Positions 6,982 through 59,068 of a DNA stretch of 59,068 nt are shown piece by piece. The notes under the pieces were generated by a model. The model had not been told where the DNA came from and searched no databases. It saw nothing but the letters and a program-made list of their open reading frames with translations. The position numbers and the translations under genes are program-made. How positions within the stretch are numbered: the stretch's first letter is position 1; each line of letters opens with the position of its first letter. This stretch comes from an uncultured Clostridia bacterium. Its GTDB lineage: Bacteria > Bacillota > Clostridia > Christensenellales > CAG-917. Where the stretch lies: NCBI GenBank assembly GCA_947629635.1, contig CANREO010000001.1:1-59068 (forward strand), given 5' to 3'.

Positions 6982-7521
6982 ATGACCAGGCAAGAACTTG
7001 ACAAAAAAATGTTGCAGCTCCAGCAGGGCGACGAGCAAGCGTTTGAGGAAATCTACAACGAGACGCGTCGTGGGCTGTTTGCTTTCATTTTGTCTATTTG
7101 CCGCAATTATCATACCGCCGAGGATATGATGCAGACCGCATATATAAGACTCAGGACAACAATTGCGTCTTACAGAGCGGGCTCGAACGCGTACGCTTGG
7201 CTGTACACCATCGCAAAAAACGCCACGCTTAATGAACTTGCCAGACAGCGTCGCGAGGCTCCTTCGGATATGGAGGATCCTACTGCGAAATTCGGCGCAT
7301 ACACGATCAATGAGACGGGAGCGCCCACTATCGCTCTTATGAACAGTATTTTAAACGATATAGAGAGGCAAATCGTTACGTTGCACGTCATTGTCGGATT
7401 TAAACATCGCGAAATCGCCGAGCTTTTGGACAAACCACTCGGCACTGTACTGTGGACATATCAAAACGCCCTTTCCAAACTTAAAAGGGCATTGCAAACG
7501 GAGGGCGAAGATGAAGCTTAA
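6982..7521 (+). CDS. RNA polymerase sigma factor, sigma-70/ECF-type (regions 2 and 4 only)
   Basis: 179 aa. Region 2-like AYAWLYTIAKN and region 4 helix-turn-helix HREIAELLDKPLGTVLWTYQNALSKLK. Confidence 0.85.
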   Translation: MTRQELDKKMLQLQQGDEQAFEEIYNETRRGLFAFILSICRNYHTAEDMMQTAYIRLRTTIASYRAGSNAYAWLYTIAKNATLNELARQRREAPSDMEDPTAKFGAYTINETGAPTIALMNSILNDIERQIVTLHVIVGFKHREIAELLDKPLGTVLWTYQNALSKLKRALQTEGEDEA

Positions 7522-8179: not shown

Positions 8180-8303
8180 AATGAGTTTAATTTAATCGAA
8201 GAGCACATTTTCTGTTGATTAAGCGCGCGTTTTATGTTAATATAATTTGCAACTTAATGTATACTACTTTATATCACGCAGTATGCGCGCATTGGGAGTT
8301 TAT

Positions 8304-34399: not shown

Positions 34400-34572
34400 A
34401 GATAACCTCCGATTTTTTATGTACCCGTTTACAACCGGAGATTTATGTTATATACTATTCACAATAAAAAATTTGCGTGCACGGGTGTGCAGAGATAAAA
34501 GTTGTAACCTTTTGCGCACTGAAAAGTTTATATAGTGAAATTTGTAAGGAGAGGGCATATGCCTTTGACGAT

Positions 34573-41678: not shown

Positions 41679-41707
41679 TTGACAAAGACGGTATAGCGAT
41701 TTATAAT
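41679..41707 (+). promoter_or_regulatory. consensus sigma-A promoter of the giant ORF
   Basis: TTGACA 41679-41684, exactly 17 nt of spacer, TATAAT 41702-41707. The intergenic region is AT-rich. Confidence 0.65.
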
Positions 41708-41769
41708 TGATGCGTATAATAATCTACGCATATGCGCGTAAGCACATATACGCAGATTTGGAGGGAATT

Positions 41770-44700
41770 ATGAGAAAGCCAAAATTTGCGGTCGTGCTGT
41801 TGCTTTGCTTGGCGGTGCTGCTCACAGTAGTACTTGCCGCTTGCGGCCCGATTGAAGACCCTTCGGGAGAATTGCCCGATCTGTCCAATCCGGGAGAAAG
41901 CAACACTCCGCCCACCGTTGACTCGGGGACGCTTATTTCTTCGCAGCAGGCTTGGAATCTGATAAAAGATGCCGCTTATGCAAGCTCCGCCGAGATCAAG
42001 GACGCGAGATATATCCGCTTTGACACATCCTTTGTGCTGGGTTATGCCAAGGATGATTACAAGAGCGTAGTCGTATTGCGAGTGGCCGGTGATTTCGACA
42101 CGACGCCTCCGACGAGCCAAAGCGTCGACAGCAGCGAGATGTTGCTTGAACTGAGAAGTTTCGCAAAAGACCAGATCGAGGGCGTCGGTAGCGAAGAACT
42201 GTCATATATGGTGGCGCAGGGCGAGGGCAAATTGCTCGTCGGAGTATATTATTACGAAGGCAAAATCGTAGCGGACCTGAGAGGACTCAAGCGCGACGCC
42301 GGCGTACATATTCTTTACACCGAAAATATCAATCTCACCTCATTTGCGGATAAGTTGGACGATATGCTTCAACAGTTGAACATATCGGAGCTTGTCTTCG
42401 AAGATCTGTTCGGATACAATCTCGGAGGACTGGTCGAGTCCCTCCTGCATCTCAATATTGTCGATTTGACGATTGAAGATATCCTTTTGAACATCGTTAT
42501 GGCAAACGCCAAAGCGCGCGTCATTGACAACGGCAACGGCAGCAGCACGGTCATTATTCCTTGCGATCTTTCCCTCATCGCCGGGATACTTCCGCTTTTG
42601 GACGGCGTCATTCCCGAAAATATAATTCAATTGGTAAACAGCGTCGTCGGTCTCGATTTGGGCAAACTCGGCTCGCTCGCCGGTATGGCGCTTTGCATAG
42701 AGGCGAATTTGCAAAACGACGGTTTGAACGATAAACTTGTCGGCATTTCGACCGATATCGACCTCAATTTCAATTCCGGCAACAACCAAACTTTGTTGGA
42801 TAAATACGGCGCATTCCAAAACGACGTAGGCATAGAGCTCGGCTACTCAAAAGCTCAATTCGTCGGCGCGCCGGAGCTTGACGTGGTGGGCATGCTTAAA
42901 GCCCGTCCCGAAGCAAGCGGCTCGAATTTCTACAACGTTGCACAGACTGCGACTCGCTATTCCATTCTTTCATTCGAGGGATCTATAGGTTTGACCGTCG
43001 ACCTCGCCGAAAGACAGATAGTGCCGCAAAATGTCATAAATTCATTCGGCACTTACCTCAATGGACTCATCACAAACAGCAAACTGAGCGAAAAACTTCT
43101 TGAAATCATCGAAGCCACTCTTGCAAGAGAGGATCTGTTGCATATAAAACAGAGCAAAGTTCAACTTACGCTCAATATCCAAGCGCTCATCAACACCCAA
43201 AAACCGAGCGAGACGAGGATAGTGGTCGAATTGACTCAGAGCAACGGCAGAGTTTTGCTCGGCGCATATTACAGGGCGGACGAAAATGCCCTTTACCTTG
43301 AGGCAGGGGGGCTCGCCGGCGCCGACGGAACCAAGTTTAAGATCGCCAACTTTGATATTTTCAAAATAGTAGACGACCTTACGGATAAGGCTTTCAACGC
43401 GATCCTGGGAGCAATAAACAGCTTGGGCGGCGAGGCCAAGGCCCAATATGAAGAAGGATTGGCAAGCGGCGCTATCGTGAGGCAATACTCCGCGATCACG
43501 GCGGACGACGGCACTCAAATAGGCGATACAATCGGCCTTATACAAGCGATAATTGACAATATCGATCTTGTCAAAGACGGCAATATTTTCAATATCAGCC
43601 AGATCAAGGTGACGCTGACTCAAGATATCCTCAACTATATCTTCGGCCTTGTGTTCACGGGCAATTTGTCGGGGCTTGAAATACCTATTGTAGGCGAGCC
43701 CACCATCACGTATAACAACCTCGGCGTGGGCGAAAATAAGACTTTGAACATCAGCCTCAAGTTAAGCGACGATCCGTCCGAGGAGCTGTTGGGACTCAGC
43801 ATAGACGGACAATTGAAATTCGGCTCCATTACCGATGAGAACGCTTTCAGAAGTAAATTTGCTACAAGAAACAGCAGAGCGACCGATTATTTGTCCATTA
43901 TGCAGAACGGACAAATAAATACGGAACTTTTGCATATCGACGTGACAGCCGGATTGGAAATCGACGTCAGAGCGCTCGAGGGCGTGCTCGGCACTTTGGG
44001 CATTGACATCAAAGATTTGGCGATAGGCGACAATTTCAAAGGGCTGCTTATCAACATATTGCTCGAACTCGGCAACATAGACGGCGGCTTGAAACTCGAC
44101 GTGGACGCGCAAATCGACTTGTCGGGCGGCGCGAATGTGGAATCTTTGCTGAATTCCTCCGCGAAGTTGGTCATAAGCAAAGTGACCGACGATTCGCCCG
44201 TGCTTTCGATATATCTGCAGAACGGCGATCTGTATGTCGACGCGCATTTGCTTTGCTTGAATGTACAAAAAATCAAGATAAATTTGAACGATATCATAAA
44301 TAAGTTTGCTAAGCCTACGTCTGAGGACACGGCTTATGTGGCGGAAGAACCCACGCCTACGGACGGCAAAGATAACCTTGCAAACATAGTCGGTGTGTTG
44401 CTCAACGCGATCGACAATATCGAAATAAGCAGCAAGGCATTGTCGCTTGCATTCTCCACAGCGGTATTGGACGATATTTTGAAGGCCATAGGCACAGAAT
44501 CATTGGAAATTTCCTTTGACAGCACAAATCTCGAAGGCGGCATCAGAATAGGCATCCCCAACGGACTCAGTTTGCCCGATCTGAGCCTCGGCGTATTCCT
44601 CGCAGTGGGCGACAACGTCGATTTGGACGTGTCGCTAGGCGGTTTGAGCGTTGGATTGCATGAGGAAAAGAAAACATATTTGAGGGAAGAAGAAACAGCC

Positions 44701-47700
44701 CTTTATACGGAGATCTTGCGCCAACCTTATCTGTCTCTGGATCTCACCATGGGCTTGGATTTCAATGCCGACGAAGGCAGCACGGATATGGAATACGGCA
44801 TGATAGGCACGCATTGGAAGTCCGGTGAAAACTATTATGAGTTGACCGATCCGCAGCACCCTGTCCCGAGCGATTATTACGGCTTGTATTATTATTGCGA
44901 TGAAGACGGAGTTTATCACGAGGCAAATTACAATCTCACGACGCTGTATTTCGGCAGCGAAGTGCAGATAAACTATGAGTTGAGGCTTGCGGGCAGACTG
45001 GATCTGTCTCCGCTTGTGGCTTATCTCATGGGGGATAACTCCATTGTCACGAGAAATAACAATTCGGAACTCTCTCTCGAACTTGTCGGAAAGAAGTTCG
45101 GCGAGCAAGAGAAGAAATTGATCGGCATCTATTATACGGGTGAAGCTTTGTACTTGGATCTGAGCAATTTCGGATTTAACAGGGTCACGGCGGACATAGA
45201 TCTATTTGGAATAATTCTCGGCTTGCTCACAAAGGACAGCACGGTGGTGCTCAATTATGACGTAGGCGCAAGTTCCGAGGCCATGGTCGCCGACGCCGCG
45301 GCGTCGGATGAAAACACAAAGCGTCAGCTTGCATTGTCTATCGTAGCTTTGCTCACTTCATCCAACCTTTACGTCGAGTTGACTCAAGGTCTTGTGACGA
45401 CGTTGTTTGAGTTGACCGGCATTGACGCGACCAATATCACGGCGTGGCTTGACGTCGCATGGGATGAGCTGGAAAATCATGACGATAAGCCTTTCCGTCT
45501 GCATGCCGCGATCAACAACGCCAGCAACGAGCCGATAGGGCAATTCGAGTTGTACGCAAGTAAAATCGATATCACCGCCGGCGGCGCGCTTGAACAGTTG
45601 AAAGTTATGGACGGCGAGACGGAACGTCCGTTGAGAGAATATTTGAACGACGGCGAAAAGAATGACTATACCGAAATTCAGCTGTTCAATCAATACGGCG
45701 ATCTGACCATACCCACCATATATGCTTCGCTTGAAGGCACCATTTCCATGGGCGCGACAGAGAGCGACACTTGGGATATCGGCTCGTGGATAGCGGCGGT
45801 ACTTACGGGTATAGATAAGACGATTGAAAACGAGCGACTCGACTCATTCGTCAATAAATTGATGTTGCAACTCAACACTCCCGTTGCGGCGGAGAGGGAA
45901 CTCGGTTTCCGCATTGCGCTGAATTTGCGTCTCAACAACGATTCGGCGATAAATGTGTTGCAAAACGCAATATTCACGGAAATAGACAGACAAAATATTG
46001 CAAAATACAGCGAAGTATACAAACTTGTAGGCACCAACTATAAGCAGCTTACGGCGGAAGAGAGGACGACATATCTCGATACGATATATCTTAAGGAATA
46101 TATCTCCGGCGGAATAAGTTTGACGGAAGTCACTCAAGTGGGATATACGGGCGACGCGTACGTATTGCTTGCCGACGGCAATTATGCCAAGGTCTCGGTG
46201 ACGCAGGACAATATGGGCGATTTTGCCGAGGATAGGTTGTTTACGACGGCAGCGGTGACGGACATCGAATACATATTGTCGCACTCCGACATCGCAATCG
46301 AGATATTCAATACCAATATCGCGGAAGCAAGCGCGGAAAATATTATTTTGGGCTTACATTTGGTGTACACCGGCGACAGTCTGGGTTACAGCGCCAGCAC
46401 ACTGTATTTGGACCTGAGAGACGACTTCCACCTCTCGTTTGCAAATCTTGACCTTGCCAAACTCATCGGATCTTTGATGAATCCGTCAAAGGATAACGGC
46501 ACCGACGCACCGGCAGCGGCGACAGCCGCGGAGACTAGAGCGTCTTCGTCTACAGACGCAAACAACGGATTGCTGGGTACCGTATTCGGCTTGCTCGGAT
46601 CGTTTATAAGCAGCGTGGGCATGGACAGCAATTATGCTAAAGTCAATATTGCCGAGGGCCTTGTTGCGGTAGTGCTCAATATGATCTTGGGCGCGAAGAT
46701 AAACCCCGAAAAGTTTATCCGACTCAACTCAGACGACAGCTATCTGAGCTTTGCATGGGAATACAATTTGCAGTTGCAACTTGCGATAGATCCCATATAT
46801 TTGGGCATAGAAATAAGCAAGATAAGTTTCAATATCGGCACGAATACAGGCGTATTGCCCGATGATTTCGACCCGTCGATCTACACGGGCATAGAGAAGA
46901 TGGACAACATTTCCGTAGACCTGCAGCTCGACGCGGATCTGCAATTGAAGGGGCAGGACGAGGAGATACGTCTGGAGGATTATCTTGACCTGTTTGTTGC
47001 GGATATCGGCCTCAAACTCGGCATTGAACTGAGCGAGACGATAGAGTACAGCCTCAGCCTCAATGTAGGCACAAATCTTGTGTTGAGCGATCCCGACAAC
47101 ACCGAGATCATACTTTCGCTCGTCAATAAGATGACAAATGAAAATGTGCTCGCCATCATCGTCAAAGGGCCCAACATTTACATTGACTTCGGCAAGCTCG
47201 CAAGTCATGCATTCTACATTACGGGCACCGAAATAGCGGATCTCATCTGCTCTTCCATAAGCAATTTGCTCAACAGCGCGCAAAGTTCCATGGGACAGGG
47301 CTCAGGCGAGGCGCAGATGGCGGCAAGCGGAATATCCTCCGATATGACGGTAGAGGATGTGATGAACGTCGTGCTAAACATCGAGTCGGGCAGGATAGGA
47401 CTGCTTGTCACTCAAAACGTGCTGGTCGGACTTATAGCCGCACTTACGGGAGGCAACTCGATATATGTAGAGATAGGTGCGGACGACGTGTATGACGACG
47501 CGTACAGCGAGAGATTCGAAAAGAACTCTTCAGGTAAATTCGAGCCGAGCGTAGAAGGCGCTTTTGTAAAAACATATCTTGTGAACAAAGTTAAGGCGAC
47601 AGCGCTCGAAAGCAAGGAAGGCGCAGAGCAAGTTTACATCGCAACGTCTGCCGGCTACGTGCTTGTCGATCCGGCACTCATCTCGGACGGCAATGTTACA

Positions 47701-50700: not shown

Positions 50701-53700
50701 AACGGGACGATCAAGTTCTATCAAGTGCCGTTTACTCAACTGTATACGGAGGCTGAAGGCTCATACACGGCGGCGGACAAATACGACGCGGAAGGCGGCA
50801 CGGCATACTATGTGCGCGAGGGCAATTCCTTTGTCAAAGTGTTGTTCGGAGCAAACGGCAAATCCGTATCCGGCAGGACCAGCTATTACGCGTCCTTCGG
50901 CGACGGAGACGACGCGGCGAGATTGCCTATCAACAGCTATGCGCTCTATCATAAGAAGCCCGTTGTTGAGGACGGAGTCGTAAAATTGAGCGAGGGCGAA
51001 ACGGACGACGATTTTGTACAAACCACGTTGTTTGTCAATGACGAAAAGGCGCTCGGCGGCTTCTATACATATGTCAAATACAATGACACGTACTACAAAG
51101 TGACCGGGCTCGAGACGCTGAACGTAGGCTATGTCAAAGATATCAAGGGCGATTATTATCGCACTATAGACAGCTATTCGAGGACAGACGAGTTCAGACT
51201 GGCGTTGGACCTCAGCGTGGGTTGCCTCAGCTTAGGTTTGCGCCTTGGCAATCTGAGCGTCGGACTCGGCGGCGGATTGCAGCTGTTGCCTGATTACTTG
51301 CGCGACGGAAAGGCGCACTCATATATCGACGAGTATGGCGCCGAACACAAATATACGACGAATATGACGGATGAAGAGAAAGAGCTTGTCGAGGATATCC
51401 CTGTCAATCCCTTCTATGACACCGTTATCGATTTGAGTTTCGCCGTAGAACTTGACTTCGGCATTACCGAAGGGAGGCTTGACTTCGGCGAAATTTTGAG
51501 TGCGATCGTAGGCAATATTGCCGGCATAAACGTCGAGATGCCCACAACTACGAAGGGATACTCTTCGGCGCACTTCAGACTTGACGCCCACGTCATGCTG
51601 GATATGTATGATCTCGGCGAGTCCGAGCTTTCGATCGAACTGGTTCAAGTGACCGAAACGGGTTATGATTCGCTTGTGATAGGCGCGTACTATATCAACA
51701 GCAACCTCTATCTCGACCTGTCCAACATGTTCAACATACCCAAGATGGCAATTACGGACCTCAGCATAACAGGTTTGTTGAATAAGGCGTTCAATACGGA
51801 CTTGTTCGAAGGAGGATTGTTCTGGGCAGACGCCGCAGAGCAAATGGCCGGAGACGCTATGATCGCAGCCGCCGACGCGTCAAATTCCGACGCAAGCACA
51901 GGTGCGGCTGGCGACGTTGACTTTACAAACAGAAACCTGGCTCTTGCAGTGCTGTTTGACAAGCATATGGTGGCAATTGCGTTGGGCGATCTGTTCTTCG
52001 ACACGGTGCTTGAGTATATCCCCGAAGATCTGCTCGGATTTGACCTCAAGCAACTGTTCTATGACGAGATAAACGGCAATTTGCAAATCAAACTCGGCAC
52101 CGAGAAGGATATCGACCTCGAATTGAAGGCGTCGTTGGGCCTTGAAGGCGGCAGATATACTTATTACACCGCGGCGACGAAAGACAAGGACAGCGCCAAC
52201 GAGGAAGCGATCAAAAACAGCCTTGCAAGCGGCTACAACACGGCGCAATATTATGTGTTTAAGGCGGAAAAGACGGCGACGGATATCGACGGCAATTTGT
52301 CCTCGCAGGACGGCTATTACACAATCAACGAGGCCGGCGGATATGCGCGTGCCATCAGACCCGACGAAATTACGGACGGTATGACGCTTTACACGCGATA
52401 CAGAGTGGCGCTGGAGCAGGGCGAGTTGTGCCTTGTGGAAATGGTTGACAATGCCGCAGGCAACGGCATGGAACTTGCCGGAAAGACTTTCAAGCTCGAA
52501 GAGGGCGACAAGATATATCTATACGCTCCGGGCGCGATCGCCAATAAGTCGTTTGTGGGAGACGGCGGATCTTACGATATGAATATGGATCTGACGCTTG
52601 CCTTGCACAACCTCAACCTAGAGTTTACAAATTCACGTTCTGCGGTGCTCAGCGGCGAGGAAATTGCGGAATACACGGCGTTTGACAACCTTGACCACAT
52701 TGTCATCAAGGATACGCTCGATCTGACGGCTATGTTCAAAAACGGCAGCGACATCGACCTCAGCGCAGTGCTTACGGCTTTCCTGCCCGGCTTGCCTACA
52801 GAAAATCTGCTTATGCTCATTGCGCAGGCGGACAACGGCGGCGACGTCATCCGCAATTTGCGCTTGAGCGTAGAGGCGGAAATTTTGAGCATGGCGCTGA
52901 TCAACTATGCGCGTACGAACCTATTCAATATCGATAACCCCAACGGCGAACTGGACATCACATACATTTTCAATCTGATTTCGGAGTTGATCAAAAACTT
53001 CAACACATTGGATCTGGGCAGAGTGCTTTCGGATCTTCTCGGCTTTGTCAACCTGAAAATAGTTTTGCAGACGAAGGGCGGCAATGATTCAGACTATCAC
53101 GACATGCTCGGCCTGTATCTTGTGGGCGGTAAATTCGAAAAGTTGACGGAAGAGGATATCGACCCGGACGGCGACAACTATATTGCGCCCGAGGACAGAT
53201 ATGACCATTATTATCAAGCTTCGTACGGCAACTTCTACTATTTGGACGGAAAATACGAGCTTATAGGAAAAGACACCTCGTTTACGGGCGTCAGATATTC
53301 TTATGATCCGAGTTATTGCTACAAGAACCCCAACGGCAACTATAAGCGCGTAGGCGGCGGCCTGTATGTGGATCTGAGCTATTTCAACATCCCCAGCATC
53401 AATGTGCCAAGCTACATGATAGAGGATTTGATCGTCAGCAATTTGTCCACAAGCGGCTCATCCGAGGCAATGATCGCCGAGGGCGAAGCGGAGGGACAGG
53501 ACTCGATCTTCCCACTTATCAAGGACGATACGATAACGGGTTATATAAGAAGCTTTGTGTATGGGGTGAGGATAACATCCGCATACGTCAAACTGCTTGT
53601 GCAACCCAATTACATCAATCAATTGCTCACGCTGTTGCTCGGCGAGGACAGCGCCATAACATTCGATGAGGATCTGTTTACAAACTACTCCAACCTTGCG

Positions 53701-56700
53701 CTGTACTTCGATAGGACGATGCACAACTATGAAAAGGTAGACGACCTCATCAACAGTATGTCATTGCTGTGGATGGCATCTCCCACGGAAGAGGAACAGG
53801 CGAGATACAGAGCGGAGATAGAAGATCTGCTTGGTAGCTCCAAGTACAGATTCCAACTCAAAGAGTATAAGGGCAAGGCGGATTCCAGCGAAAACGGCTT
53901 GTACTATATCGACGATAACGGCGCATTCGTTCATAAGAACGAGATGGGCACGGCGGAGCGCGCTGCCTATGACGAACTTGTCAACGAAGGCAAAAAGGCG
54001 TATTACGACGTCGTAAGTGTGCCCACATATATAAGGTTGCTCGATCCGACGACCAAAGCGCCGACAAACAATTTCGTGTTGTATTCGACAGCAAACAAAG
54101 TGCAGCTTGCAAACGCCGAGGCTGACGACAGGCTTGCGCAATTCAGCGTGTCATTGCCCAAATTGTACACTGTCACGGATAAGATAAGCGACGACACAAA
54201 GAACGTCGAAGTAAACGGCACGATTTATACCCCGACCAACCCCGAATTGTCCTACTCCAAGAGGCTTACCACGGAAAATCCGCTTTTGAGTTTGCAGGTA
54301 TTCCTGTGGGATTATTCGCTTAAGCTCGACTTGCAATTCCCACAGTTCGAAGTGGTCGAATTCAAGTATCTGACAGGCACTGAAGCGGCAGAGCAGATAG
54401 GCGAGATCCCCGACGGCGTGCGCTATGTCGATATGGCGCAGGACTTCTACAACAACGAGGACAAGACTACGCTTGACGCGTGGGTGGCCGACTATTATAG
54501 AGAAGGCGCGTTCAGCAGCGACGAATATGAGAAGAATCCGCGCTTCTATAAGAACAGAAACAACTATTATCCGATAGACAAAACTACCTTGAGCGTATAT
54601 AACGAGGGCAAATACGAGCTCGCAGTGAAAGACGGAGATCCGTTCCCGGATATACTCAAGGAGATCGAGGAAAACGGCAAAGAATATTATGTCTACGTAG
54701 GCTCGGGTTACGAGTTGTTGCAAAGGGCTTACATTTACAAGCACAACAGATACGACAGCGTCTACAAGAGGTTGCTCGCGCCCGAAGAGAAGAAAGCGGA
54801 CGGATCGGAGTACGGCCCCGACGAATACTACGTTCGCGTGCAACAGGACAGCGGCGTGCAAGCGCCCGATTTCGGCGATCCGCTGTATGATGATTATGCA
54901 TACAAAGAGTACGTGCCCGTAAACGAGTTGTACTATCTGTCGCTGGATCTGCGTGCGCACATTTCGATAAACTCCGGCAAGATATACTTTGCATATGCGG
55001 ATTATCTGGCACTTTACAACAGTTTGCATCCCGAAGAGCACGTAACGGAATTTACGAAAGAGCAACTGAAAGGGATCGCATATAAGATATTCCAAGGCAA
55101 CTATGTCGCGCTTTCGGACACGGACGACTTCGAAGCGTTGCGCGACGGCGGCAATTTGTACGTGTGGGTCAACTCTTCACTCGGTCCCGAGTACGGCATA
55201 GACGAGGCGTTGAGCGACGTGCTCGGCGGCATACTGGGCAATCTCAAGGGCAGATTCCAGGTGTCGGACAACATGACGTTGAACATCTATTTGTCATTAA
55301 GGCTCAACCTCACGTTTGAGATCTCGCTCGTGCCGGCGAAGTTGATAATCCGCGACCTCGACGTAGCGATCGACGGTTGGGGCGAACAGAACGATATGCT
55401 GGAGGACGGCACGTTTATCGATCCCGACACGAGAAATAACTACGCAGAGAACGAGTTGCTTGACGGTTCGCTTACGCACTTGTTCGGCATCTACTACAGC
55501 CATGACCGCAACACGGGCGAGGCCGGGTTGTACGTCGACCTCGAGTGGCTGCTCGGCTCGGACGCCAAGATAATGATAGACCTCAGCGATTACACGCTCG
55601 AGGACGTGATAAACGGTCAATTCGGCGACACGGAAGCGCAGAGTGAAGCGATGATGGCGGCGGACGGCATGAACGTACAACAATCGTCATCTGCCGTAAG
55701 CCTGTATGTCAACATATTTACAAACGCGATAGCCGTCAACATGACGAGCGGCTTTATCAAGGCGCTCATCGGAGAGCTGTCGCCGGAATCGACTTTGGGC
55801 GATCTCATCCCCAACTTGAAGATATATGCAAAACTCGATCTCAACCCCTATGATCTGACGGTGGGCGCGTTGCTGTTCAACGAGGACGGCGACAGACCCA
55901 TGCTTGACGTCAGCATGACGTTGGAGGGCTTAAACGGCGACAAGGATTCGTCCAGGATCACGTTTGGGCTCGCGTCCAAAGTCAACGCGGAGCAGAGGCC
56001 CGAGGATCATGTCTTCTACTTTGCAAACTTCTATAGCGACAAAGACGGCAACTATGGCAAGAACGGAACGGATAAGGAGTACGTGAGGCTGTACAAGGAC
56101 GCGGAAGGCAAGGAGTATGTCGCTGCGGAAGACGGCTCGTATATGCTTGACGAAAGCGGCGTCATAGTGGACGCGACGGAGGGATACGAAGGGCAGAAGT
56201 ATGCCCCGTACAACGGGCCGACGGCGCGCTACAGCAAGGCGGAAGGAGAAATGAAGCCGATAGTCGGCTTCAGATACGGTCTCGGCTCGCCGTACGACGA
56301 ATATGGCGACGACGTCTACACATTGCATCAAGGCGAATACAGGACGGTAGATTATCTCCTGCCCACGCTTGGCAGCAGCAAGTTCAGAGACATATACAAC
56401 AAGGAAGCGTTCAAGGACTTCACGGGTTGGGTGTACGCAATCAGAAATCAAGAGTACGTCGAGCTTGAAAAGGCAACTCTCGAAGGCTTTACCGGCGAGG
56501 GCAACTTGCAATATATCCTTGCAGACGACATCGACAGCGTGCTGACGGGTGGGCTTGCGACATTTAAGGAAGCATGGCTTGCGAAGGCGGTCGAAGTGGG
56601 CGGCAAGAAGTATTTGCCCGTAGACTTTGTATTGTCCGACGACAATACGACGATAGTCGGCATAGGCGACAAGGGCTACACCTCGCTGTACGACGCGGAT

Positions 56701-59068
56701 ATGGTGACGCCCGACGTCACGGCATACAAGCTTGTAAGCGACTTTACAAACTACAGCAAGGCGATCTCGCTCAACTTCAAAGATCTGCTTGACGGCAAGA
56801 AGATCGACATTAATGAGTTGCTTGGCGACCTCAAGTCCGTTGAAGCGGGCGCGAGACTGTCGCTGAACATCAAGATGTCGGATATCATCAATTGGACGTA
56901 TCAGATGACCAGGTTTGTCGGCGACGACAGCATTGCGGAATATCTGTACTTCCTCATTGCATCGCTTGAGGAGAACAGCCCGATGAACAACGAGCTGAAC
57001 CTCGACGCGGAGCTTCGCGTGTATCTGCCTCTTGCGCCTCTTGTCAACTACATCATCAACAAGCAGGGCGGTCTGCTGGACGCAATAAACGGCTTGGGCC
57101 TGTACGTGAAGTTTAGTTACGCCACGGGTCTGCACGACGATACGGCGACGTCCTACGTGCTTGGGCAGATAAGGGACGGCAAGCTGTATTTGCGCATAGA
57201 TCTGTCCAACTTCACAAAGGTTGCCGGATTTGGCGACTTCCTGTCATACATAGCGATAGACGGCCTGTCGCTGAGCAGCTTGATCGGCAGCTCGTCGCAA
57301 GTGTCATCGGACGCGAGCGTCGCGGCGGCTTTCGACGACGAACTCAACGATTACGGCATTGTTCCGTCTAACATTTGGCAGGTCATCAATGTGCTTTTGG
57401 GCAGATTGTTTGTGGCAAACGACTTCTTGACGGTGGGCCTTGGCGAGACGCTTATCGGCGACCTCATCGAGATGTTGTCGGAGTCCGAAAACGAAGTGAT
57501 ACAGGGCATCATAGAGTTTATGCCCAAGTTGTATACTTCAAACGGCAACGATACGAGCGGCATCACGATCAATCTGTACGGCGAATCGCCGTCGATCAAC
57601 CTCAACATCGGCCTCAAGGCAGGCGGAATGTACTACCTGGAAGTCGGAGAATACAACTCCATGTACGGCGCGACGGGCAACTATTTTGTCGGAAGCGGTC
57701 AGCACAGAGATTGGGACGGCGAGCGCTTCCATCACGAAGATGGACAATATGTGCTTTGCAACGACGGCTCGAGATGCGACAAGGAGCATTACGTGCTGGT
57801 GATGACCGACGACTATGCGCTTATCAGCTATGCTTATCCCGATTGGCAAGGCGACACGTACGACTATAACAAAGATACAAACGGCTTCGACAAAAACGAG
57901 GGCGGCAGCGGTCAGTACATGAAACTGGGCGAGTTTGGCTTCGGCGCGCAGGTGAGCGACCTGCATGCGGCGATCAACCGCGACTTCACCGTGACGGACA
58001 AGGATATGTACGCTCTCATCCACAAGGACGCTGTAGGCGCGGACGAGCAAGGATATCTTATTGACGCGAAGGGTGCGCGCGTGCATGACCAGAGCGGAGC
58101 GGAGATGAAAGACCCGTACGTGAAGGCGGACGATCTGGAAGCTACGCTGGAGATGTCCATAGACGTCTCGCTGTACGGCGCGGGCGGAGCCGGCGACGAC
58201 AACGTCATCGACCTGAGCGAAGTGCTGGATCTGTTGCTGGGATTGCTTGCCCCCAACAGCGACCTCAACGGCAGCGTATTGCGCCTCAACATAGTCAACA
58301 AAGTGGGCAAAGACGACGGAGCCTTCCTCACTCTCGACCTCAAGTTGCACTTCAATTTGGCGACTTGGGACATAGACGCGAAGATAGAACTTATCAAGCA
58401 CAACCCTGATGGCAACGACACGTCGGTGCTTTTGGGCGTGTATCTAGACAAGACCGAAGATAAGGGCACTTCGCTTTACATCGACCTCGGCGGCTTGCTT
58501 GACAAGTCCGCAAAGATTGCAATAACAAACCTCAATATCGAAGGATTGCTGAAGGACAAGCTGGGCAAGCTGTTGTCATCGTCAAGCGCCGAGGACGCGA
58601 GTAGCGACGCCAGGATAGCGGACGGCAAAGACGTGCACGAGACGGTTGAAAAATTGATGAAGGACTATGCATACTTCATGCTGTTTGTCAATCCGCGCAA
58701 GATACTGCTTCAGTTCAACGCGGACCTCATCAATGTGATATACAAGAAGATACTTCAAGTGCGCGGTCAGGAGCCGAAAAACCTCATCCCCGACCTGGGC
58801 GACATACTGCTTATGCTGGACGCGACGGGCGGAAGGACAAAGCTTGGGCTGAACGTACGCTTGAGCGACGCATTCTATATCGCGCTCGACATGAACGTGC
58901 CTACGATTTCCAAGAGCTTTAACAGTGAGGAGTTCTGGGGCGATACCGATCTGAGTTTCAGAGAGGAAGGCACAAGCACGGGTTATATCCCGATGCTCGA
59001 TCTTGACCTCAACAGCGTGCTCAAGGGCGGCGAGACGGACATACTCGGGGCGCTGAAGATGCCTTCGC
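41770..59068 (+). CDS. giant lipoprotein, unknown family (3-prime end outside window; at least 5,766 aa)
   Basis: GGAGGG at 41760-41765 and ATG at 41770. Translation begins MRKPKFAVVLLLCLAVLLTVVLAAC-G (lipobox). The frame with positions congruent to 1 mod 3 has its last stop at 41704-41706 and none afterwards. I translated the first 7 sequence lines and more than 30 further lines spread to 59041 without meeting a stop. The track lists no plus-strand ORF in this frame, as expected for an ORF with no stop inside the window. Confidence 0.9.
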   Translation, partial: MRKPKFAVVLLLCLAVLLTVVLAACGPIEDPSGELPDLSNPGESNTPPTVDSGTLISSQQAWNLIKDAAYASSAEIKDARYIRFDTSFVLGYAKDDYKSVVVLRVAGDFDTTPPTSQSVDSSEMLLELRSFAKDQIEGVGSEELSYMVAQGEGKLLVGVYYYEGKIVADLRGLKRDAGVHILYTENINLTSFADKLDDMLQQLNISELVFEDLFGYNLGGLVESLLHLNIVDLTIEDILLNIVMANAKARVIDNGNGSSTVIIPCDLSLIAGILPLLDGVIPENIIQLVNSVVGLDLGKLGSLAGMALCIEANLQNDGLNDKLVGISTDIDLNFNSGNNQTLLDKYGAFQNDVGIELGYSKAQFVGAPELDVVGMLKARPEASGSNFYNVAQTATRYSILSFEGSIGLTVDLAERQIVPQNVINSFGTYLNGLITNSKLSEKLLEIIEATLAREDLLHIKQSKVQLTLNIQALINTQKPSETRIVVELTQSNGRVLLGAYYRADENALYLEAGGLAGADGTKFKIANFDIFKIVDDLTDKAFNAILGAINSLGGEAKAQYEEGLASGAIVRQYSAITADDGTQIGDTIGLIQAIIDNIDLVKDGNIFNISQIKVTLTQDILNYIFGLVFTGNLSGLEIPIVGEPTITYNNLGVGENKTLNISLKLSDDPSEELLGLSIDGQLKFGSITDENAFRSKFATRNSRATDYLSIMQNGQINTELLHIDVTAGLEIDVRALEGVLGTLGIDIKDLAIGDNFKGLLINILLELGNIDGGLKLDVDAQIDLSGGANVESLLNSSAKLVISKVTDDSPVLSIYLQNGDLYVDAHLLCLNVQKIKINLNDIINKFAKPTSEDTAYVAEEPTPTDGKDNLANIVGVLLNAIDNIEISSKALSLAFSTAVLDDILKAIGTESLEISFDSTNLEGGIRIGIPNGLSLPDLSLGVFLAVGDNVDLDVSLGGLSVGLHEEKKTYLREEETALYTEILRQPYLSLDLTMGLDFNADEGSTDMEYGMIGTHWKSGENYYELTDPQHPVPSDYYGLYYYCDEDGVYHEANYNLTTLYFGSEVQINYELRLAGRLDLSPLVAYLMGDNSIVTRNNNSELSLELVGKKFGEQEKKLIGIYYTGEALYLDLSNFGFNRVTADIDLFGIILGLLTKDSTVVLNYDVGASSEAMVADAAASDENTKRQLALSIVALLTSSNLYVELTQGLVTTLFELTGIDATNITAWLDVAWDELENHDDKPFRLHAAINNASNEPIGQFELYASKIDITAGGALEQLKVMDGETERPLREYLNDGEKNDYTEIQLFNQYGDLTIPTIYASLEGTISMGATESDTWDIGSWIAAVLTGIDKTIENERLDSFVNKLMLQLNTPVAAERELGFRIALNLRLNNDSAINVLQNAIFTEIDRQNIAKYSEVYKLVGTNYKQLTAEERTTYLDTIYLKEYISGGISLTEVTQVGYTGDAYVLLADGNYAKVSVTQDNMGDFAEDRLFTTAAVTDIEYILSHSDIAIEIFNTNIAEASAENIILGLHLVYTGDSLGYSASTLYLDLRDDFHLSFANLDLAKLIGSLMNPSKDNGTDAPAAATAAETRASSSTDANNGLLGTVFGLLGSFISSVGMDSNYAKVNIAEGLVAVVLNMILGAKINPEKFIRLNSDDSYLSFAWEYNLQLQLAIDPIYLGIEISKISFNIGTNTGVLPDDFDPSIYTGIEKMDNISVDLQLDADLQLKGQDEEIRLEDYLDLFVADIGLKLGIELSETIEYSLSLNVGTNLVLSDPDNTEIILSLVNKMTNENVLAIIVKGPNIYIDFGKLASHAFYITGTEIADLICSSISNLLNSAQSSMGQGSGEAQMAASGISSDMTVEDVMNVVLNIESGRIGLLVTQNVLVGLIAALTGGNSIYVEIGADDVYDDAYSERFEKNSSGKFEPSVEGAFVKTYLVNKVKATALESKEGAEQVYIATSAGYVLVDPALISDGNVTFYSLDLGYTVEEILEKIDLGISVKAELQLNPSIAIGIELDSKLLAVGLNISTVNVATGTDNDAYRRIHKLIDDAISVKDAVPYTVEDPTKGDYYYKLDDGSFVKAGEFDADSQTRADDVVYEDRFERHDDLSIITLNLSLVLDYSASATYVYVSNNEALNAYDPMDRYSYNASDGRFVKDPNGRYVRDGFAFDDTIEALLNIPTVKEALGGILIPVVHMSTEGGEFIGSTTKLPLSEALSRLGLNFMISDMMDDGVKLDLVVKLDLEKLGLTLTDINSIKEFINKLSNNIKNKTVDVKNLVDAMEVGLTLDFTYEDPNEDVKISVYLIESIVYVDASGVGLPRISFNLFDLIDAFTAVTGGAQSEAQMAAGNQTSTSFVSLLNAVVSHILISATDISGLEALSIFFKPDMFKSLLTILTGQNFTSEMLDFTENSGIFLRPGGTMDSLLSLGLLVELANKNDPIESEDGEVTPFTLKLDLGLAANLGFENSEEYESLLDPDERADFIDFLTYIENIVNIVNGYENESYVRAEKPIGDGSLYYVFKPDENGNYVTAVGMFRPINDGEVVAAGKQRYRREYAKFVGDKISIVEYLPADESADEANLFAYDAEQDIYVRVADYNGSDERRFVEHEKESIGPNDAALYNKQGVPTYTDQYISLSVGGLIYLNSSSVETYNLGGLVSNLFGDMLIELQTKSVFNGGIGLKVSANVDLASLDLKALFGGTFSDFLANSNLDRVELALEFIEVSEDGHFVTYSDGSDKVLGGMYLTGDTLYFDMTGVVETAETYARIDDFMSFARKVAGLIDGLTKKDNTGNDATGQAMAAADNPTNYATAVRNAIIALVYSDEVFQLQLTRALISYIFSTLMPDLGSIDEIFDVLSLSLGLEHGKEVFRKIEDMTNEEEKAKFLDENDSANYWNDRYTYYKDPTYLPVANDGYYAVRTDGGYEYFDIASARLFTMDGDNYKYAETYSAEGGATYFVRDGKTYRQVEFVANSYYAANVNGTIKFYQVPFTQLYTEAEGSYTAADKYDAEGGTAYYVREGNSFVKVLFGANGKSVSGRTSYYASFGDGDDAARLPINSYALYHKKPVVEDGVVKLSEGETDDDFVQTTLFVNDEKALGGFYTYVKYNDTYYKVTGLETLNVGYVKDIKGDYYRTIDSYSRTDEFRLALDLSVGCLSLGLRLGNLSVGLGGGLQLLPDYLRDGKAHSYIDEYGAEHKYTTNMTDEEKELVEDIPVNPFYDTVIDLSFAVELDFGITEGRLDFGEILSAIVGNIAGINVEMPTTTKGYSSAHFRLDAHVMLDMYDLGESELSIELVQVTETGYDSLVIGAYYINSNLYLDLSNMFNIPKMAITDLSITGLLNKAFNTDLFEGGLFWADAAEQMAGDAMIAAADASNSDASTGAAGDVDFTNRNLALAVLFDKHMVAIALGDLFFDTVLEYIPEDLLGFDLKQLFYDEINGNLQIKLGTEKDIDLELKASLGLEGGRYTYYTAATKDKDSANEEAIKNSLASGYNTAQYYVFKAEKTATDIDGNLSSQDGYYTINEAGGYARAIRPDEITDGMTLYTRYRVALEQGELCLVEMVDNAAGNGMELAGKTFKLEEGDKIYLYAPGAIANKSFVGDGGSYDMNMDLTLALHNLNLEFTNSRSAVLSGEEIAEYTAFDNLDHIVIKDTLDLTAMFKNGSDIDLSAVLTAFLPGLPTENLLMLIAQADNGGDVIRNLRLSVEAEILSMALINYARTNLFNIDNPNGELDITYIFNLISELIKNFNTLDLGRVLSDLLGFVNLKIVLQTKGGNDSDYHDMLGLYLVGGKFEKLTEEDIDPDGDNYIAPEDRYDHYYQASYGNFYYLDGKYELIGKDTSFTGVRYSYDPSYCYKNPNGNYKRVGGGLYVDLSYFNIPSINVPSYMIEDLIVSNLSTSGSSEAMIAEGEAEGQDSIFPLIKDDTITGYIRSFVYGVRITSAYVKLLVQPNYINQLLTLLLGEDSAITFDEDLFTNYSNLALYFDRTMHNYEKVDDLINSMSLLWMASPTEEEQARYRAEIEDLLGSSKYRFQLKEYKGKADSSENGLYYIDDNGAFVHKNEMGTAERAAYDELVNEGKKAYYDVVSVPTYIRLLDPTTKAPTNNFVLYSTANKVQLANAEADDRLAQFSVSLPKLYTVTDKISDDTKNVEVNGTIYTPTNPELSYSKRLTTENPLLSLQVFLWDYSLKLDLQFPQFEVVEFKYLTGTEAAEQIGEIPDGVRYVDMAQDFYNNEDKTTLDAWVADYYREGAFSSDEYEKNPRFYKNRNNYYPIDKTTLSVYNEGKYELAVKDGDPFPDILKEIEENGKEYYVYVGSGYELLQRAYIYKHNRYDSVYKRLLAPEEKKADGSEYGPDEYYVRVQQDSGVQAPDFGDPLYDDYAYKEYVPVNELYYLSLDLRAHISINSGKIYFAYADYLALYNSLHPEEHVTEFTKEQLKGIAYKIFQGNYVALSDTDDFEALRDGGNLYVWVNSSLGPEYGIDEALSDVLGGILGNLKGRFQVSDNMTLNIYLSLRLNLTFEISLVPAKLIIRDLDVAIDGWGEQNDMLEDGTFIDPDTRNNYAENELLDGSLTHLFGIYYSHDRNTGEAGLYVDLEWLLGSDAKIMIDLSDYTLEDVINGQFGDTEAQSEAMMAADGMNVQQSSSAVSLYVNIFTNAIAVNMTSGFIKALIGELSPESTLGDLIPNLKIYAKLDLNPYDLTVGALLFNEDGDRPMLDVSMTLEGLNGDKDSSRITFGLASKVNAEQRPEDHVFYFANFYSDKDGNYGKNGTDKEYVRLYKDAEGKEYVAAEDGSYMLDESGVIVDATEGYEGQKYAPYNGPTARYSKAEGEMKPIVGFRYGLGSPYDEYGDDVYTLHQGEYRTVDYLLPTLGSSKFRDIYNKEAFKDFTGWVYAIRNQEYVELEKATLEGFTGEGNLQYILADDIDSVLTGGLATFKEAWLAKAVEVGGKKYLPVDFVLSDDNTTIVGIGDKGYTSLYDADMVTPDVTAYKLVSDFTNYSKAISLNFKDLLDGKKIDINELLGDLKSVEAGARLSLNIKMSDIINWTYQMTRFVGDDSIAEYLYFLIASLEENSPMNNELNLDAELRVYLPLAPLVNYIINKQGGLLDAINGLGLYVKFSYATGLHDDTATSYVLGQIRDGKLYLRIDLSNFTKVAGFGDFLSYIAIDGLSLSSLIGSSSQVSSDASVAAAFDDELNDYGIVPSNIWQVINVLLGRLFVANDFLTVGLGETLIGDLIEMLSESENEVIQGIIEFMPKLYTSNGNDTSGITINLYGESPSINLNIGLKAGGMYYLEVGEYNSMYGATGNYFVGSGQHRDWDGERFHHEDGQYVLCNDGSRCDKEHYVLVMTDDYALISYAYPDWQGDTYDYNKDTNGFDKNEGGSGQYMKLGEFGFGAQVSDLHAAINRDFTVTDKDMYALIHKDAVGADEQGYLIDAKGARVHDQSGAEMKDPYVKADDLEATLEMSIDVSLYGAGGAGDDNVIDLSEVLDLLLGLLAPNSDLNGSVLRLNIVNKVGKDDGAFLTLDLKLHFNLATWDIDAKIELIKHNPDGNDTSVLLGVYLDKTEDKGTSLYIDLGGLLDKSAKIAITNLNIEGLLKDKLGKLLSSSSAEDASSDARIADGKDVHETVEKLMKDYAYFMLFVNPRKILLQFNADLINVIYKKILQVRGQEPKNLIPDLGDILLMLDATGGRTKLGLNVRLSDAFYIALDMNVPTISKSFNSEEFWGDTDLSFREEGTSTGYIPMLDLDLNSVLKGGETDILGALKMPS

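Follow-up and report, generated by a model that had tools for sequence, protein, structure and literature searches.

A giant predicted lipoprotein of uncultured gut Clostridia composed of ancient, individually conserved copies of a new domain

The analysed stretch of DNA (the window; 59,068 nucleotides) carries SipL/SPOCS, RsgI, PFOR and Pth-Mfd genes and represents a Clostridia chromosome with sporulation genes; the host belongs to an uncultured gut lineage of spore-forming Clostridia. The 59-kb window shows no outer-membrane genes, which is weak evidence on the type of envelope, and Rfam and tRNA scans of the window gave no result. A giant ORF begins at position 41770 and remains open past the end of the window. 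Its start codon lies 5 nt downstream of a Shine-Dalgarno sequence, read from the sequence, and 63 nt downstream of a promoter-like site that agrees with the consensus at 12 of 12 positions; this site is a consensus match only, about two weaker matches being expected by chance in the region. The features at the 5' end of the gene are as follows.

41679..41707, forward strand: promoter-like TTGACA-17-TATAAT
41760..41764, forward strand: Shine-Dalgarno sequence GGAGG
41770..59067, forward strand: giant ORF of at least 5,766 codons, frame 1, ATG at 41770
41770..41844, forward strand: predicted lipoprotein signal peptide MRKPKFAVVLLLCLAVLLTVVLAAC, lipobox L-A-A-C, predicted lipidated residue Cys25

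Full-length homologues comprise 5,600–7,924 aa, and residues 4790–4989 of one of them, P0005 (7,881 aa), align with aa 5510–5766 of the window protein. The ORF is roughly the first three quarters of a single-copy chromosomal giant-lipoprotein gene, whose complete product probably has about 7,000–7,900 aa. The window protein is acidic and nearly free of Cys (D+E 15.4%, K+R 7.4%, C 0.2%), a composition typical of the secreted proteins of anaerobes, and is rich in Leu (12%), Asp (8.8%), Gly, Tyr and Asn.

The N-terminus, MRKPK-FAVVLLLCLAVLLTVVL-AAC, has the characteristics by which bacterial lipoproteins (Lgt/Lsp substrates) were recognised, namely a positively charged n-region, a hydrophobic h-region and a lipobox of the pattern [LVI][ASTVI][GAS]C with its Cys, here residue 25, at about residues 15–30. 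The strict lipobox pattern matches 17 of the 21 homologues longer than 5,000 aa; among the other four, P0019 and P0050 have by eye a lipobox-like S-C or A-C variant, while P0002 and P0092 begin without a signal peptide and are probably 5'-truncated. Given a Sec/lipoprotein signal carrying the lipobox LAAC, the N-terminal Cys should be lipid-anchored at the outer face of the cytoplasmic membrane.

The original prediction was that this protein contains at least 13 very divergent copies of a large module, marked by a hairpin core of the form (L/I)G-x-Y-(Y/L) ... L-Y-x-D-L. All 13 L/I-Y/V-x-D elements are found in frame 1 at exactly the predicted positions. The core segments (−60 to +110) were densely linked in an all-versus-all phmmer comparison, and HMMs built from the cores recovered 12 of the 13 copies in a leave-one-out test at 10.5–48.5 bits, whereas the full protein sequence, block-shuffled 50 times, gave no score above 5.6 bits. 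The remaining copy, core 1, scored 3.1 bits in this test and 27 bits (E 2e-8) with a family-wide unit profile. The core regions are listed below with the residue number of the L-Y-x-D element and the leave-one-out score.

42082..42588, forward strand: module 1, aa 105–273; IVAD at aa 166 is the L-Y-x-D equivalent; most divergent copy; 3.1 bits
43144..43563, forward strand: module 2, aa 459–598; core aa 508; 17.0 bits
44050..44523, forward strand: module 3, aa 761–918; core aa 821; 17.8 bits
44986..45438, forward strand: module 4, aa 1073–1223; core aa 1127; 48.5 bits
46231..46728, forward strand: module 5, aa 1488–1653; core aa 1545; 15.1 bits
46996..47481, forward strand: module 6, aa 1743–1904; core aa 1803; 25.0 bits
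48526..49008, forward strand: module 7, aa 2253–2413; core aa 2309; 22.4 bits
49834..50322, forward strand: module 8, aa 2689–2851; core aa 2749; 32.3 bits
51526..52035, forward strand: module 9, aa 3253–3422; core aa 3313; 45.0 bits
53251..53691, forward strand: module 10, aa 3828–3974; core aa 3865; Tyr-rich insert within the hairpin; 17.3 bits
55396..55824, forward strand: module 11, aa 4543–4685; core aa 4587; 23.3 bits
57001..57516, forward strand: module 12, aa 5078–5249; core aa 5139; 10.5 bits
58294..58803, forward strand: module 13, aa 5509–5678; core aa 5569; 35.2 bits

An additional degenerate copy had been suspected near 55156 (aa 4463). It was reported as a core by no leave-one-out profile and lies inside the upstream strands of module 11, whose unit match spans aa 4429–4688, and it was rejected as a separate core. 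The alternating strand said to precede the core and the D-L-x-x-L-L helix said to follow it are both present in the consensus of 176 diverse modules. The homologous unit is larger than the hairpin and comprises about 250–326 aa; a 326-aa unit profile found 777 domains in the family set, of which 399 cover at least 70% of the model. The most compact complete unit in the protein was used for this profile and for structure modelling.

46537..47514, forward strand: complete linker-to-linker unit, aa 1590–1915

Whether the core is a hairpin of a solenoid or of a groove was to be judged from the predicted structure of one module. The AlphaFold model of aa 1590–1915, the sole unit modelled at usable confidence, has a mean pLDDT of 72 and a pTM of 0.50, with values of about 94 in the core strands and below 50 in the linker, while a three-module model made from 8 sequences was unusable (mean pLDDT 47). 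The secondary structure of the unit is H-E-E-H-E-E-E-(insert site)-E-H-E-E-E-E-E, followed by a long helix and a disordered linker. The (L/I)G-x-Y-(Y/L) and L-Y-x-D-L segments form adjacent antiparallel strands (pLDDT about 94), in agreement with the proposed hairpin, which is also backed by the covarying pairs 205–215 and 207–214. Covariation was calculated from 375 modules by mean-field DCA in the zero-sum gauge with the gap state left out; it revealed the antiparallel ladders 124-137/169-182, 169-182/190-197, 190-197/202-210, 202-210/213-217 and 213-217/225-228 and the helix-to-sheet contacts 93–250, 90–243, 84–246 and 209–246. In the 176 diverse modules every strand shows strict i/i+2 hydrophobic alternation. 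As modelled, the module is a meander of long antiparallel strands, of which the hairpin first noticed is the best conserved pair, with the N-terminal helices and a 21-residue C-terminal helix packed onto the sheet. The model and the covariation point to a discrete alpha/beta domain with a long helix on a sheet rather than to a solenoid or groove.

The units end in acidic, Ala/Ser/Gly-rich linkers with a median length of 45 aa that are predicted to be disordered. Many of them carry a second conserved motif, G-S-S-E-A-x-(T/A)-A-(A/D)-D. In the window the pattern [SGTAQ][EDQ]A..A[ADSEGT] occurs 32–48 aa after 10 of the 13 cores (0.68 expected), as listed below. Family-wide, the strict motif is found in 63 of 275 linkers (23%) versus 8 of 275 composition-shuffled ones, and the loose motif in 38% versus 13% of shuffled linkers; distant members have retained the modules but show the motif weakly or not at all.

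45274..45294, forward strand: linker motif SEAMVAD, aa 1169, 42 aa after core 4
46501..46521, forward strand: linker motif TDAPAAA, aa 1578, 33 aa after core 5
47305..47325, forward strand: linker motif GEAQMAA, aa 1846, 43 aa after core 6
48790..48810, forward strand: linker motif SEAQMAA, aa 2341, 32 aa after core 7
50152..50172, forward strand: linker motif GQAMAAA, aa 2795, 46 aa after core 8
51850..51870, forward strand: linker motif GDAMIAA, aa 3361, 48 aa after core 9
53461..53481, forward strand: linker motif SEAMIAE, aa 3898, 33 aa after core 10
55642..55662, forward strand: linker motif SEAMMAA, aa 4625, 38 aa after core 11
57307..57327, forward strand: linker motif SDASVAA, aa 5180, 41 aa after core 12
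58603..58623, forward strand: linker motif SDARIAD, aa 5612, 43 aa after core 13

The spacing of the cores, 258–722 aa as first described, is variable because Tyr-rich inserts are placed in the loops; the inter-core lengths are 87–551 aa. These inserts contain tandem motifs of the YY-x-x-x-D-G-x-(Y/F)-V type, such as YYVFKPDENGNYVTAV and TYFVRDGKTYRQVEF, and are predicted to form small beta-hairpins. The following example, at about aa 1400–1489, is the only part of the three-module AlphaFold model with a pLDDT of about 80.

45967..46236, forward strand: Tyr-rich beta-hairpin insert between modules

The statement that no named domain has this signature is borne out: Pfam and NCBIfam searches (E up to 1) gave nothing for the window protein, which was scanned in three pieces, 35 module instances had no Pfam matches at E up to 10, and none, including SLH, CWB2, LysM and CW_binding, was found by Pfam in the C-terminal 2,601 aa of homologue P0005. 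Sequence searches of the PDB with the core profile and the homologue C-terminus returned nothing. The best Foldseek matches of the unit model had E values of 0.13 (PDB) and 0.07 (BFVD viral library) with TM scores of at most 0.18, and the three-module model gave only non-significant porin, ORP, SPLUNC and AttH-type matches. The AsmA, AsmA_2, TamB (DUF490) and Chorein profiles were matched neither by the whole protein (E up to 1) nor by the 35 modules (E up to 10). Membership in the AsmA-like group was rejected, since alignment of the module profile with E. coli TamB by hhalign had a probability of 0.13 and Foldseek gave no significant match, with no TamB, VPS13, ATG2, LolA or BPI match and a best PDB hit at E 0.13 and TM 0.11. 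The domain of about 250 residues matches no described family or solved structure and is a new domain family. No earlier description of the protein in Clostridia or Christensenellales was found in the literature, and no source names it; giant-protein analogues there are the Giant proteins of Apilactobacillus kunkeei (PMC12863079) and the giant genes of Omnitrophota.

An exhaustive search of 1.84 billion proteins yielded 137 representative relatives, whereas a word-index search had found two fragments only (P0001 and P0139). The full-length relatives are lipoproteins with 6–16 recognisable modules in collinear order and a core-free C-terminal region of about 1,000–3,000 aa. Past the part that corresponds to the window protein they have at least one more module, and the core-free region comes after it. 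In the close clade the core-free region is about 2,000–2,600 aa long with several divergent beta-rich repeats of about 100 aa, and KGYSSAHxRLD is found before module 9; in the window protein this module, the best conserved in the family, is preceded by KGYSSAHFRLD. An alignment search with module 9 located the gene in 55 species-level genomes, mostly labelled as Christensenella/Christensenellales or uncultured Clostridia. It is a stand-alone gene within conserved synteny. In 54 of the 55 genomes the ORF exceeds 6,000 aa without interruption, as far as the locus permits.

The copies were originally described as diverged almost beyond recognition at the DNA level and were attributed to ancient internal amplification. 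Both points hold. The copies are unrecognisable as DNA because no repeat in 41770–59068 is longer than 53 nt, which also rules out recent repeat expansion, and paralogous modules share 14–27% identity. The window modules score in most cases 22–91 bits against their collinear counterparts in P0005, P0006 and P0011, but 4–22 bits against their best-matching paralogue within the protein itself; hence the modules had been duplicated before these species diverged, and the amplification is older than the close clade. Since each module has a positional orthologue in other species, the array is old and fixed and is not an expandable repeat.

The most likely reading, with a probability of about one half, is that the protein is a membrane-tethered surface scaffold or adhesin of fixed architecture. 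It would form a tethered string of domains or stalk with a reach, estimated from the number of domains and the linker lengths, of tens of nm to more than 100 nm, crossing and exceeding the wall, with the C-terminal array of beta-domains and the Tyr-rich inserts facing outside. Most likely it would serve to attach the cell to host glycans or mucus, to food particles or to partner cells, or would act as an envelope scaffold of fixed length. Neither the window protein nor the last 2,600 aa of P0005 contained a match to any known adhesin, wall-binding or sugar-binding domain. Adhesin stalks usually consist of near-identical repeats that change in copy number; non-interchangeable, positionally conserved modules are unusual for them and are more in keeping with a machine or bridge. 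The sheets, being amphipathic, could enclose hydrophobic ligands.

Successive sheets of this kind might line a hydrophobic groove or a chain of pockets, in which case the protein would be a conduit for lipids or other hydrophobic ligands between the cytoplasmic membrane and a distal outer layer, forespore or partner cell, with a mechanism resembling that of the repeating beta-groove bridges of the AsmA-like/VPS13 type or of TULIP/LolA-type carriers. The strict hydrophobic/polar alternation in all strands, the long strands (up to 14 residues) in antiparallel meanders and the membrane anchoring of one end agree with such a function, as does the age and positional conservation of the modules, in which they are like RBG units. 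In an RBG unit five strands are followed by a helix and a long disordered loop, and the core half of the present unit reads likewise. However, a conduit is unlikely. The profile, hhalign and Foldseek comparisons described above gave no match to AsmA, TamB (DUF490), Chorein, VPS13, ATG2, LolA or BPI. In addition, covariation puts the long C-terminal helix on the sheet, which suggests that the hydrophobic face is buried in a closed domain, linkers of about 45 aa with predicted disorder lie between the modules, and the host looks monoderm, with no second membrane to bridge, although the 59-kb window is weak evidence in this respect.

It is likewise doubtful that the protein is a surface polyprotein, that is, an exported precursor cut at S-E-A-x-(T/A)-A-(A/D)-D in the disordered linkers to release a dozen or more different module proteins, which would form an envelope layer or act separately, the first fragment alone staying lipid-anchored. 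Processing of this type is reportedly known from the P97/P102 adhesins of Mycoplasma hyopneumoniae, which are cut at short S/T-X-F|X-D/E motifs in disordered regions. The motif is the sole conserved feature of otherwise variable, acidic linkers and lies at a set distance after the cores, and the modules are individually conserved, as expected of separate proteins. Against this, the strict motif is present in just 23% of linkers and the loose one in 38% versus 13% of shuffled linkers, distant members retain the modules with a weak or absent motif, no protease gene is among the conserved neighbours, and nothing would hold the released fragments at the cell.

A further, rather improbable reading takes the protein not as an adhesin stalk but as an extracellular bridge or relay of set length. 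Representing a new structural class, it would move lipids or other hydrophobic molecules in a single-membrane bacterium, its modules each holding a hydrophobic pocket or together forming a track. In such a bridge 13–16 non-interchangeable helix-in-sheet modules would connect the cytoplasmic membrane with a distal target, possibly a partner cell such as a methanogen in Christensenella-type flocs, and S-E-A-x-T-A-A-D would be a docking or processing signal. Flocs of this kind have been reported for cultured Christensenella (PMC7002349). If true, the protein would be an independently arisen analogue of the bridge-like lipid transfer proteins of eukaryotes and Gram-negative bacteria. Finally, that the recurrence is a chance or compositional artefact of a long beta-rich, Leu- and Asp-rich ORF, or that the ORF is no real gene, would agree with the abundance of L, D, G, Y and N, the shortness of the core motif and a core 1 that barely exceeds the shuffled background in the leave-one-out test, but is refuted by the scores of the other 12 cores, an alignable unit of about 250–326 aa, the agreement of AlphaFold strands with covariation ladders, more than 6,000 intact codons in 54 of 55 species and conserved synteny.

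The Christensenellales are mostly uncultured. They are among the gut lineages most consistently tied to host leanness and to co-occurrence with methanogens (PMC6819567, PMC7002349). The gene makes up about 1.4% of a 1.65-Mb genome, is preserved intact at one and the same chromosomal site in no fewer than 54 species and has individually conserved modules, and must therefore matter to its hosts; yet it is wholly unannotated, and neither Pfam, NCBIfam nor the PDB holds a relative that could be detected. The new domain family could be deposited, for example in Pfam, and the conserved linker motif makes a processing or docking hypothesis testable. The protein is a clean case of ancient, non-homogenised internal amplification in a bacterial giant protein. 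Long-read or fragmented assemblies often split the gene into many "proteins", which distorts gene catalogues.

Among known systems, the Tyr-Gly hairpin repeats of choline-binding proteins and CROPs are a tentative parallel to the Tyr-rich inserts only; the inserts are without the characteristic Trp and have no Pfam CW_binding_1 match at E up to 1. The mycoplasma P97/P102 adhesins are, reportedly, also large membrane-associated surface proteins with short conserved motifs in acidic disordered regions between folded parts; the sequences, however, are unrelated, the motif here is S-E-A-x-T-A-A-D and its cleavage is conjecture.

The AsmA-like/RBG bridges (TamB, YhdP and YdbH; VPS13 and ATG2), whose bacterial AsmA-like members have been reviewed (PMC10345924, PMC11126948), are similar in being very long, in their N-terminal membrane anchor and in their many ancient, individually conserved units with amphipathic strands, a helix and a disordered loop. 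They differ in that no sequence, profile or fold match exists, that the helix here apparently lies on the sheet and the linkers are like inter-domain spacers, and that their anchor is a transmembrane helix, whereas here a lipoprotein anchor is predicted in an apparently single-membrane host.

Ebh of Staphylococcus and the 'periscope' stalk proteins are further giant surface proteins. Such proteins have a C-terminal LPXTG or wall-binding module and near-identical, number-variable repeats, whereas the present family has an N-terminal lipobox and repeats that are ancient (14–27% identity) and positionally orthologous; no domain is shared, as no beta-solenoid, FIVAR, GA, Rib or Ig domain was detected. 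The near-identical stalk repeats of variable copy number that mark sortase-anchored giant adhesins of the Ebh, SasC, Rib and SRRP type are absent, and so is their C-terminal signal, judged on P0005 (...GAEQTVTV) and P0006 (...TVKAANAI), in which LPXTG with a hydrophobic tail was not seen by eye; the C-terminus of the window protein lies outside the window. As in the family described here, a role in cell-cell or cell-surface interaction is presumed for the giant surface proteins of small-genome Firmicutes. A parallel in build is offered by Giant1-5 of Apilactobacillus kunkeei (PMC12863079), which are likewise extracellular, elongated, multi-domain proteins of several thousand residues, each taking up more than 1% of a genome of about 1.5 Mb; the gene reported here extends over no less than 17 kb of the window, and its full-length relatives measure about 23 kb, compared with 1.65 Mb for the genome CP091723.1.

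The giant gene occupies frame 1 of the plus strand, in which the last stop lies at 41704; the frame then stays open to the window end, which cuts the ORF after at least 5,766 codons. The last residues of the window protein correspond to approximately residue 4,990 of the 7,881 of P0005, a full-length relative, so that about one quarter of the gene extends past the window end. The signals at its 5' end are as follows.

41679-41707, plus strand: promoter-like site TTGACA-17-TATAAT, a perfect match to the sigma-70 consensus, directly upstream of the gene
41760-41764, plus strand: GGAGG Shine-Dalgarno sequence, 5 nt 5' of the ATG
41770, plus strand: ATG, the likely start of the open frame 1

The N-terminus of the product, MRKPKFAVVLLLCLAVLLTVVLAAC followed by GP, reads as a textbook lipoprotein signal with the lipobox L-A-A-C and Cys25. 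The protein is acidic and rich in Leu, Asp, Gly, Tyr and Asn, while Cys is nearly absent.

All 13 cores listed in the original prediction, (L/I)G-x-Y-(Y/L) followed by L-Y-x-D-L, were found in frame at their predicted coordinates, with the predicted spacing of 258-722 aa. An all-versus-all comparison of the 171-aa core segments yields a single dense network. In a non-circular leave-one-out test, in which each core in turn was sought in the whole protein with an HMM of the other 12 segments, 12 of the 13 cores were recovered with 10.5-48.5 bits, as against a maximum of 5.6 bits in 50 block-shuffled copies of the whole protein. Core 1 was marginal in this test (3.1 bits) and scored 27 bits with the whole-family profile. 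The possible extra copy at 55156 gave no core match and falls inside the upstream strands of module 11. As predicted, the copies cannot be recognised at the nucleotide level, where the longest repeat in the gene is 53 nt; the observation of a divergent 13-fold repeat is thus confirmed, including its DNA-level divergence.

The repeat is far larger than the hairpin alone. Residues 1590-1915, which form the most compact linker-to-linker stretch, seeded an iterated profile search of the window protein together with its relatives; the resulting unit profile of 326 positions found 777 domains, 399 of them covering at least 70% of the model. Practically every module of the window protein aligns to the unit as a whole (e.g. 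aa 257-564, 577-854, 865-1229, 2610-2857, 3135-3394, 4429-4688 and 5383-5662), and the spacing of the cores varies because Tyr-rich inserts occupy loops. The sole appreciable DNA repeat in the gene (50596-50648 and 50773-50825; 53 nt, 177 nt apart, 79% identity) reflects a recent tandem duplication of 59 aa within one such insert (AETYSAEGGATYFVRDGK / ADKYDAEGGTAYYVREGN). The inserts are therefore still evolving by duplication, while the modules are not.

The prediction that no named domain carries this signature held in Pfam, NCBIfam, PDB, Foldseek and literature searches. No match was obtained with Pfam and NCBIfam for the window protein, with Pfam at E-values up to 10 for 35 modules, with Pfam for the C-terminal 2,601 residues of P0005, or in PDB sequence searches. 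Foldseek returned nothing from the PDB (best E 0.13, TM 0.11) or from a viral library, and aligning the module profile with E. coli TamB in hhalign gave a probability of 0.13. Literature searches found no description of this giant protein, and none of seven full-length relatives is named in any source.

Searched exhaustively with a profile, 1.84 billion representative proteins yielded 137 relatives, 16 of them at E <1e-30, the longest of 7,924 aa. Many of the 137 are fragments of broken gene calls catalogued as separate proteins, such as P0001, a 287-aa fragment ending in out-of-frame sequence. A word-index protein search returned only one match per query, where the exhaustive one gave 137; the index seems to cover very long proteins poorly. 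Every full-length relative that was read begins with a lipoprotein signal. Among the 21 relatives longer than 5,000 aa, 17 fit the strict lipobox pattern, two more carry an S-C or A-C variant by eye, and two, which look truncated, have no signal peptide. Long relatives contain 6-16 recognisable modules (12-16 in the closer ones), followed by a core-free region of ~1,000-3,000 aa overall and ~2,000-2,600 aa in the close clade, which holds several divergent beta-rich repeats of ~85-115 aa each. The C-termini of two of them, P0005 and P0006, showed neither LPXTG nor a wall-binding module. A distant branch (P0019, P0025, P0027 and P0050; 7,267-7,879 aa) has retained the lipoprotein signal together with 8-10 recognisable modules, and its C-terminal half looks different by eye.

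A locus scan with clade-specific patterns, using one genome per species, located 55 loci, most of them labelled Christensenella/Christensenellales, uncultured Clostridia/Clostridiales, CAG:475, CAG:238 or Candidatus Limadaptatus. Isolate names point to gut and rumen samples from humans (including Hadza), ruminants and chickens, and one locus lies on a complete chromosome of 1.65 Mb. At 54 of the 55 loci the frame is uninterrupted over all the sequence available, exceeding 6,000 codons; the remaining locus comes from a long-read assembly. The orthologous gene is split into many short called genes or frames in L001 (Logan SRR31464236) and L003 (CP091723.1), the latter a long-read assembly by its isolate name. 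Loci labelled Bacteroides/Bacteroidaceae, Phascolarctobacterium, Butyrivibrio or Anaeroplasmataceae (L015, L023, L024, L027, L028, L034-L037, L039, L040 and L047) probably reflect mislabelled bins rather than horizontal transfer, because the gene is otherwise confined to Christensenellales-like Clostridia.

The array was predicted to be an ancient internal amplification, and the alignments bear this out. The window protein is collinear with long relatives; its modules match their collinear counterparts in three of these (P0005, P0006 and P0011) mostly with 22-91 bits, by a large margin over the second-best module, as against 4-22 bits for the best paralogue of each module within the window protein. 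Module by module, the array is therefore older than the split of these lineages, and the modules have not been homogenised since. Collinearity is only partial in the most distant relatives, P0012 and P0016.

The gene stands alone in a conserved neighbourhood. In three distant relatives an HGSNAT_cat/Acyl_transf_3 acyltransferase likewise lies upstream on the opposite strand (L059 4230-5138, L060 2167-3054 and L061 4904-5812), and the giant gene is followed by a Mem_trans permease and a Band_7/zinc-ribbon gene. The remaining window is an ordinary Clostridia chromosome (SerRS, SipL, RsgI/sigma, PFOR, GlmU-like, Pth, Mfd). The neighbouring and other features are listed here.

40382-41290, minus strand: HGSNAT_cat/Acyl_transf_3 membrane acyltransferase, upstream of the giant gene
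41325-41297, minus strand: second promoter-like site, 11/12 consensus with extended TG, facing the divergent acyltransferase gene
33374-34399, minus strand: collagen-like 341-aa ORF with G-X-Y triple-helix repeats (Pfam Collagen, E 1.4e-8)
34477-35862, plus strand: stand-alone NRPS-type Condensation domain protein, 461 aa (E 5e-10), with no adenylation or carrier domains nearby
5382-6938, minus strand: RsgI-like anti-sigma factor
6982-7521, plus strand: ECF-type sigma factor
8247-10988, plus strand: 913-aa protein with a Listeria-Bacteroides repeat, beside the sigma/anti-sigma genes

The collagen-like product of this spore-former might be a component of the exosporium or of a surface filament, and the RsgI-like and ECF-type genes may form a sigma/anti-sigma pair governing another surface protein.

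AlphaFold gave a mean pLDDT of 47 for three modules with 8 sequences. A one-unit model built with 34 diverse module instances reached a mean pLDDT of 72 and a pTM of 0.50, with ~94 over the core strands and <50 over the linker. It comprises a helix, a short hairpin, a helix, three strands and an insert-prone loop, then a 14-residue strand, a short helix, a second 14-residue strand, four strands, a 21-residue helix and the disordered linker; the two predicted core motifs are among the last strands. Two independent lines agree with this model. Column hydrophobicity in 176 diverse modules alternates strictly (i/i+2) in every strand, and mean-field covariation over 375 modules shows clean antiparallel ladders between consecutive strands, including one across the predicted hairpin (pairs 205-215 and 207-214), and contacts of the long C-terminal helix with both sheet halves (93-250, 90-243, 84-246 and 209-246). 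On this evidence, the unit is read as a discrete alpha/beta domain with helices over the hydrophobic face of a meander sheet and acidic linkers as boundaries; it may still contain a cavity or groove.

A second conserved element, absent from the original prediction, is the linker motif [SGTAQ][EDQ]A..A[ADSEGT], found 32-48 residues C-terminal to 10 of the 13 cores, as compared with 0.68 expected (e.g. SEAMVAD, GEAQMAA, SEAQMAA, SEAMIAE, SEAMMAA). Its family consensus, G-(S/A)-S-E-A-(V/M/L/I)-(T/A)-A-(A/D)-D, occurs in 63 of 275 complete linkers versus 8 of 275 composition-shuffled ones. The linkers in which it sits have a median length of 45 aa; outside the motif their sequence varies, with much Ala, Ser, Gly, Glu and Asp.

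The protein thus has a lipoprotein anchor, behind which alpha/beta domains follow one another in a long series, each distinct and conserved in its own right. The acidic linkers look flexible and bear a conserved motif, the Tyr-rich inserts in the loops vary, and in the relatives small beta domains form an array at the distal end. As to function, we infer, with a probability of about 0.5, that it is tethered on the outer face of the membrane and stretches outward as a string or stalk of domains. Its reach, estimated from domain number and linker length, would be tens of nm to >100 nm; the inserts and C-terminal array would be presented for binding, or the protein would act in the envelope as a scaffold of fixed length. 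That every module is conserved individually favours a defined architecture over a simple extensible spacer, and so keeps two other, less conventional readings alive. Cleavage into a surface polyprotein at the linker motif, whose position would suit, is improbable, the motif not being universal and no protease being linked to the gene. A conduit for hydrophobic ligands, working like the AsmA/VPS13-type bridges, is likewise improbable, since the linkers and the contacts between helix and sheet count against it and a test for membership of that type was negative.

The giant lipoprotein is the product of a real and ancient 13-fold internal amplification (12-16-fold in full-length close relatives) of a previously undescribed domain, and is found mostly in uncultured gut bacteria whose genomes are labelled Christensenella, Christensenellales or Clostridia. 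Giant bacterial surface repeat proteins are already known as a kind; the novelty lies in the domain, in the anchoring as a lipoprotein, in the fixed, non-homogenised architecture and in the linker motif. The nearest concept is that of the giant extracellular proteins of Apilactobacillus kunkeei, the architecture of which differs from that of this lipoprotein.
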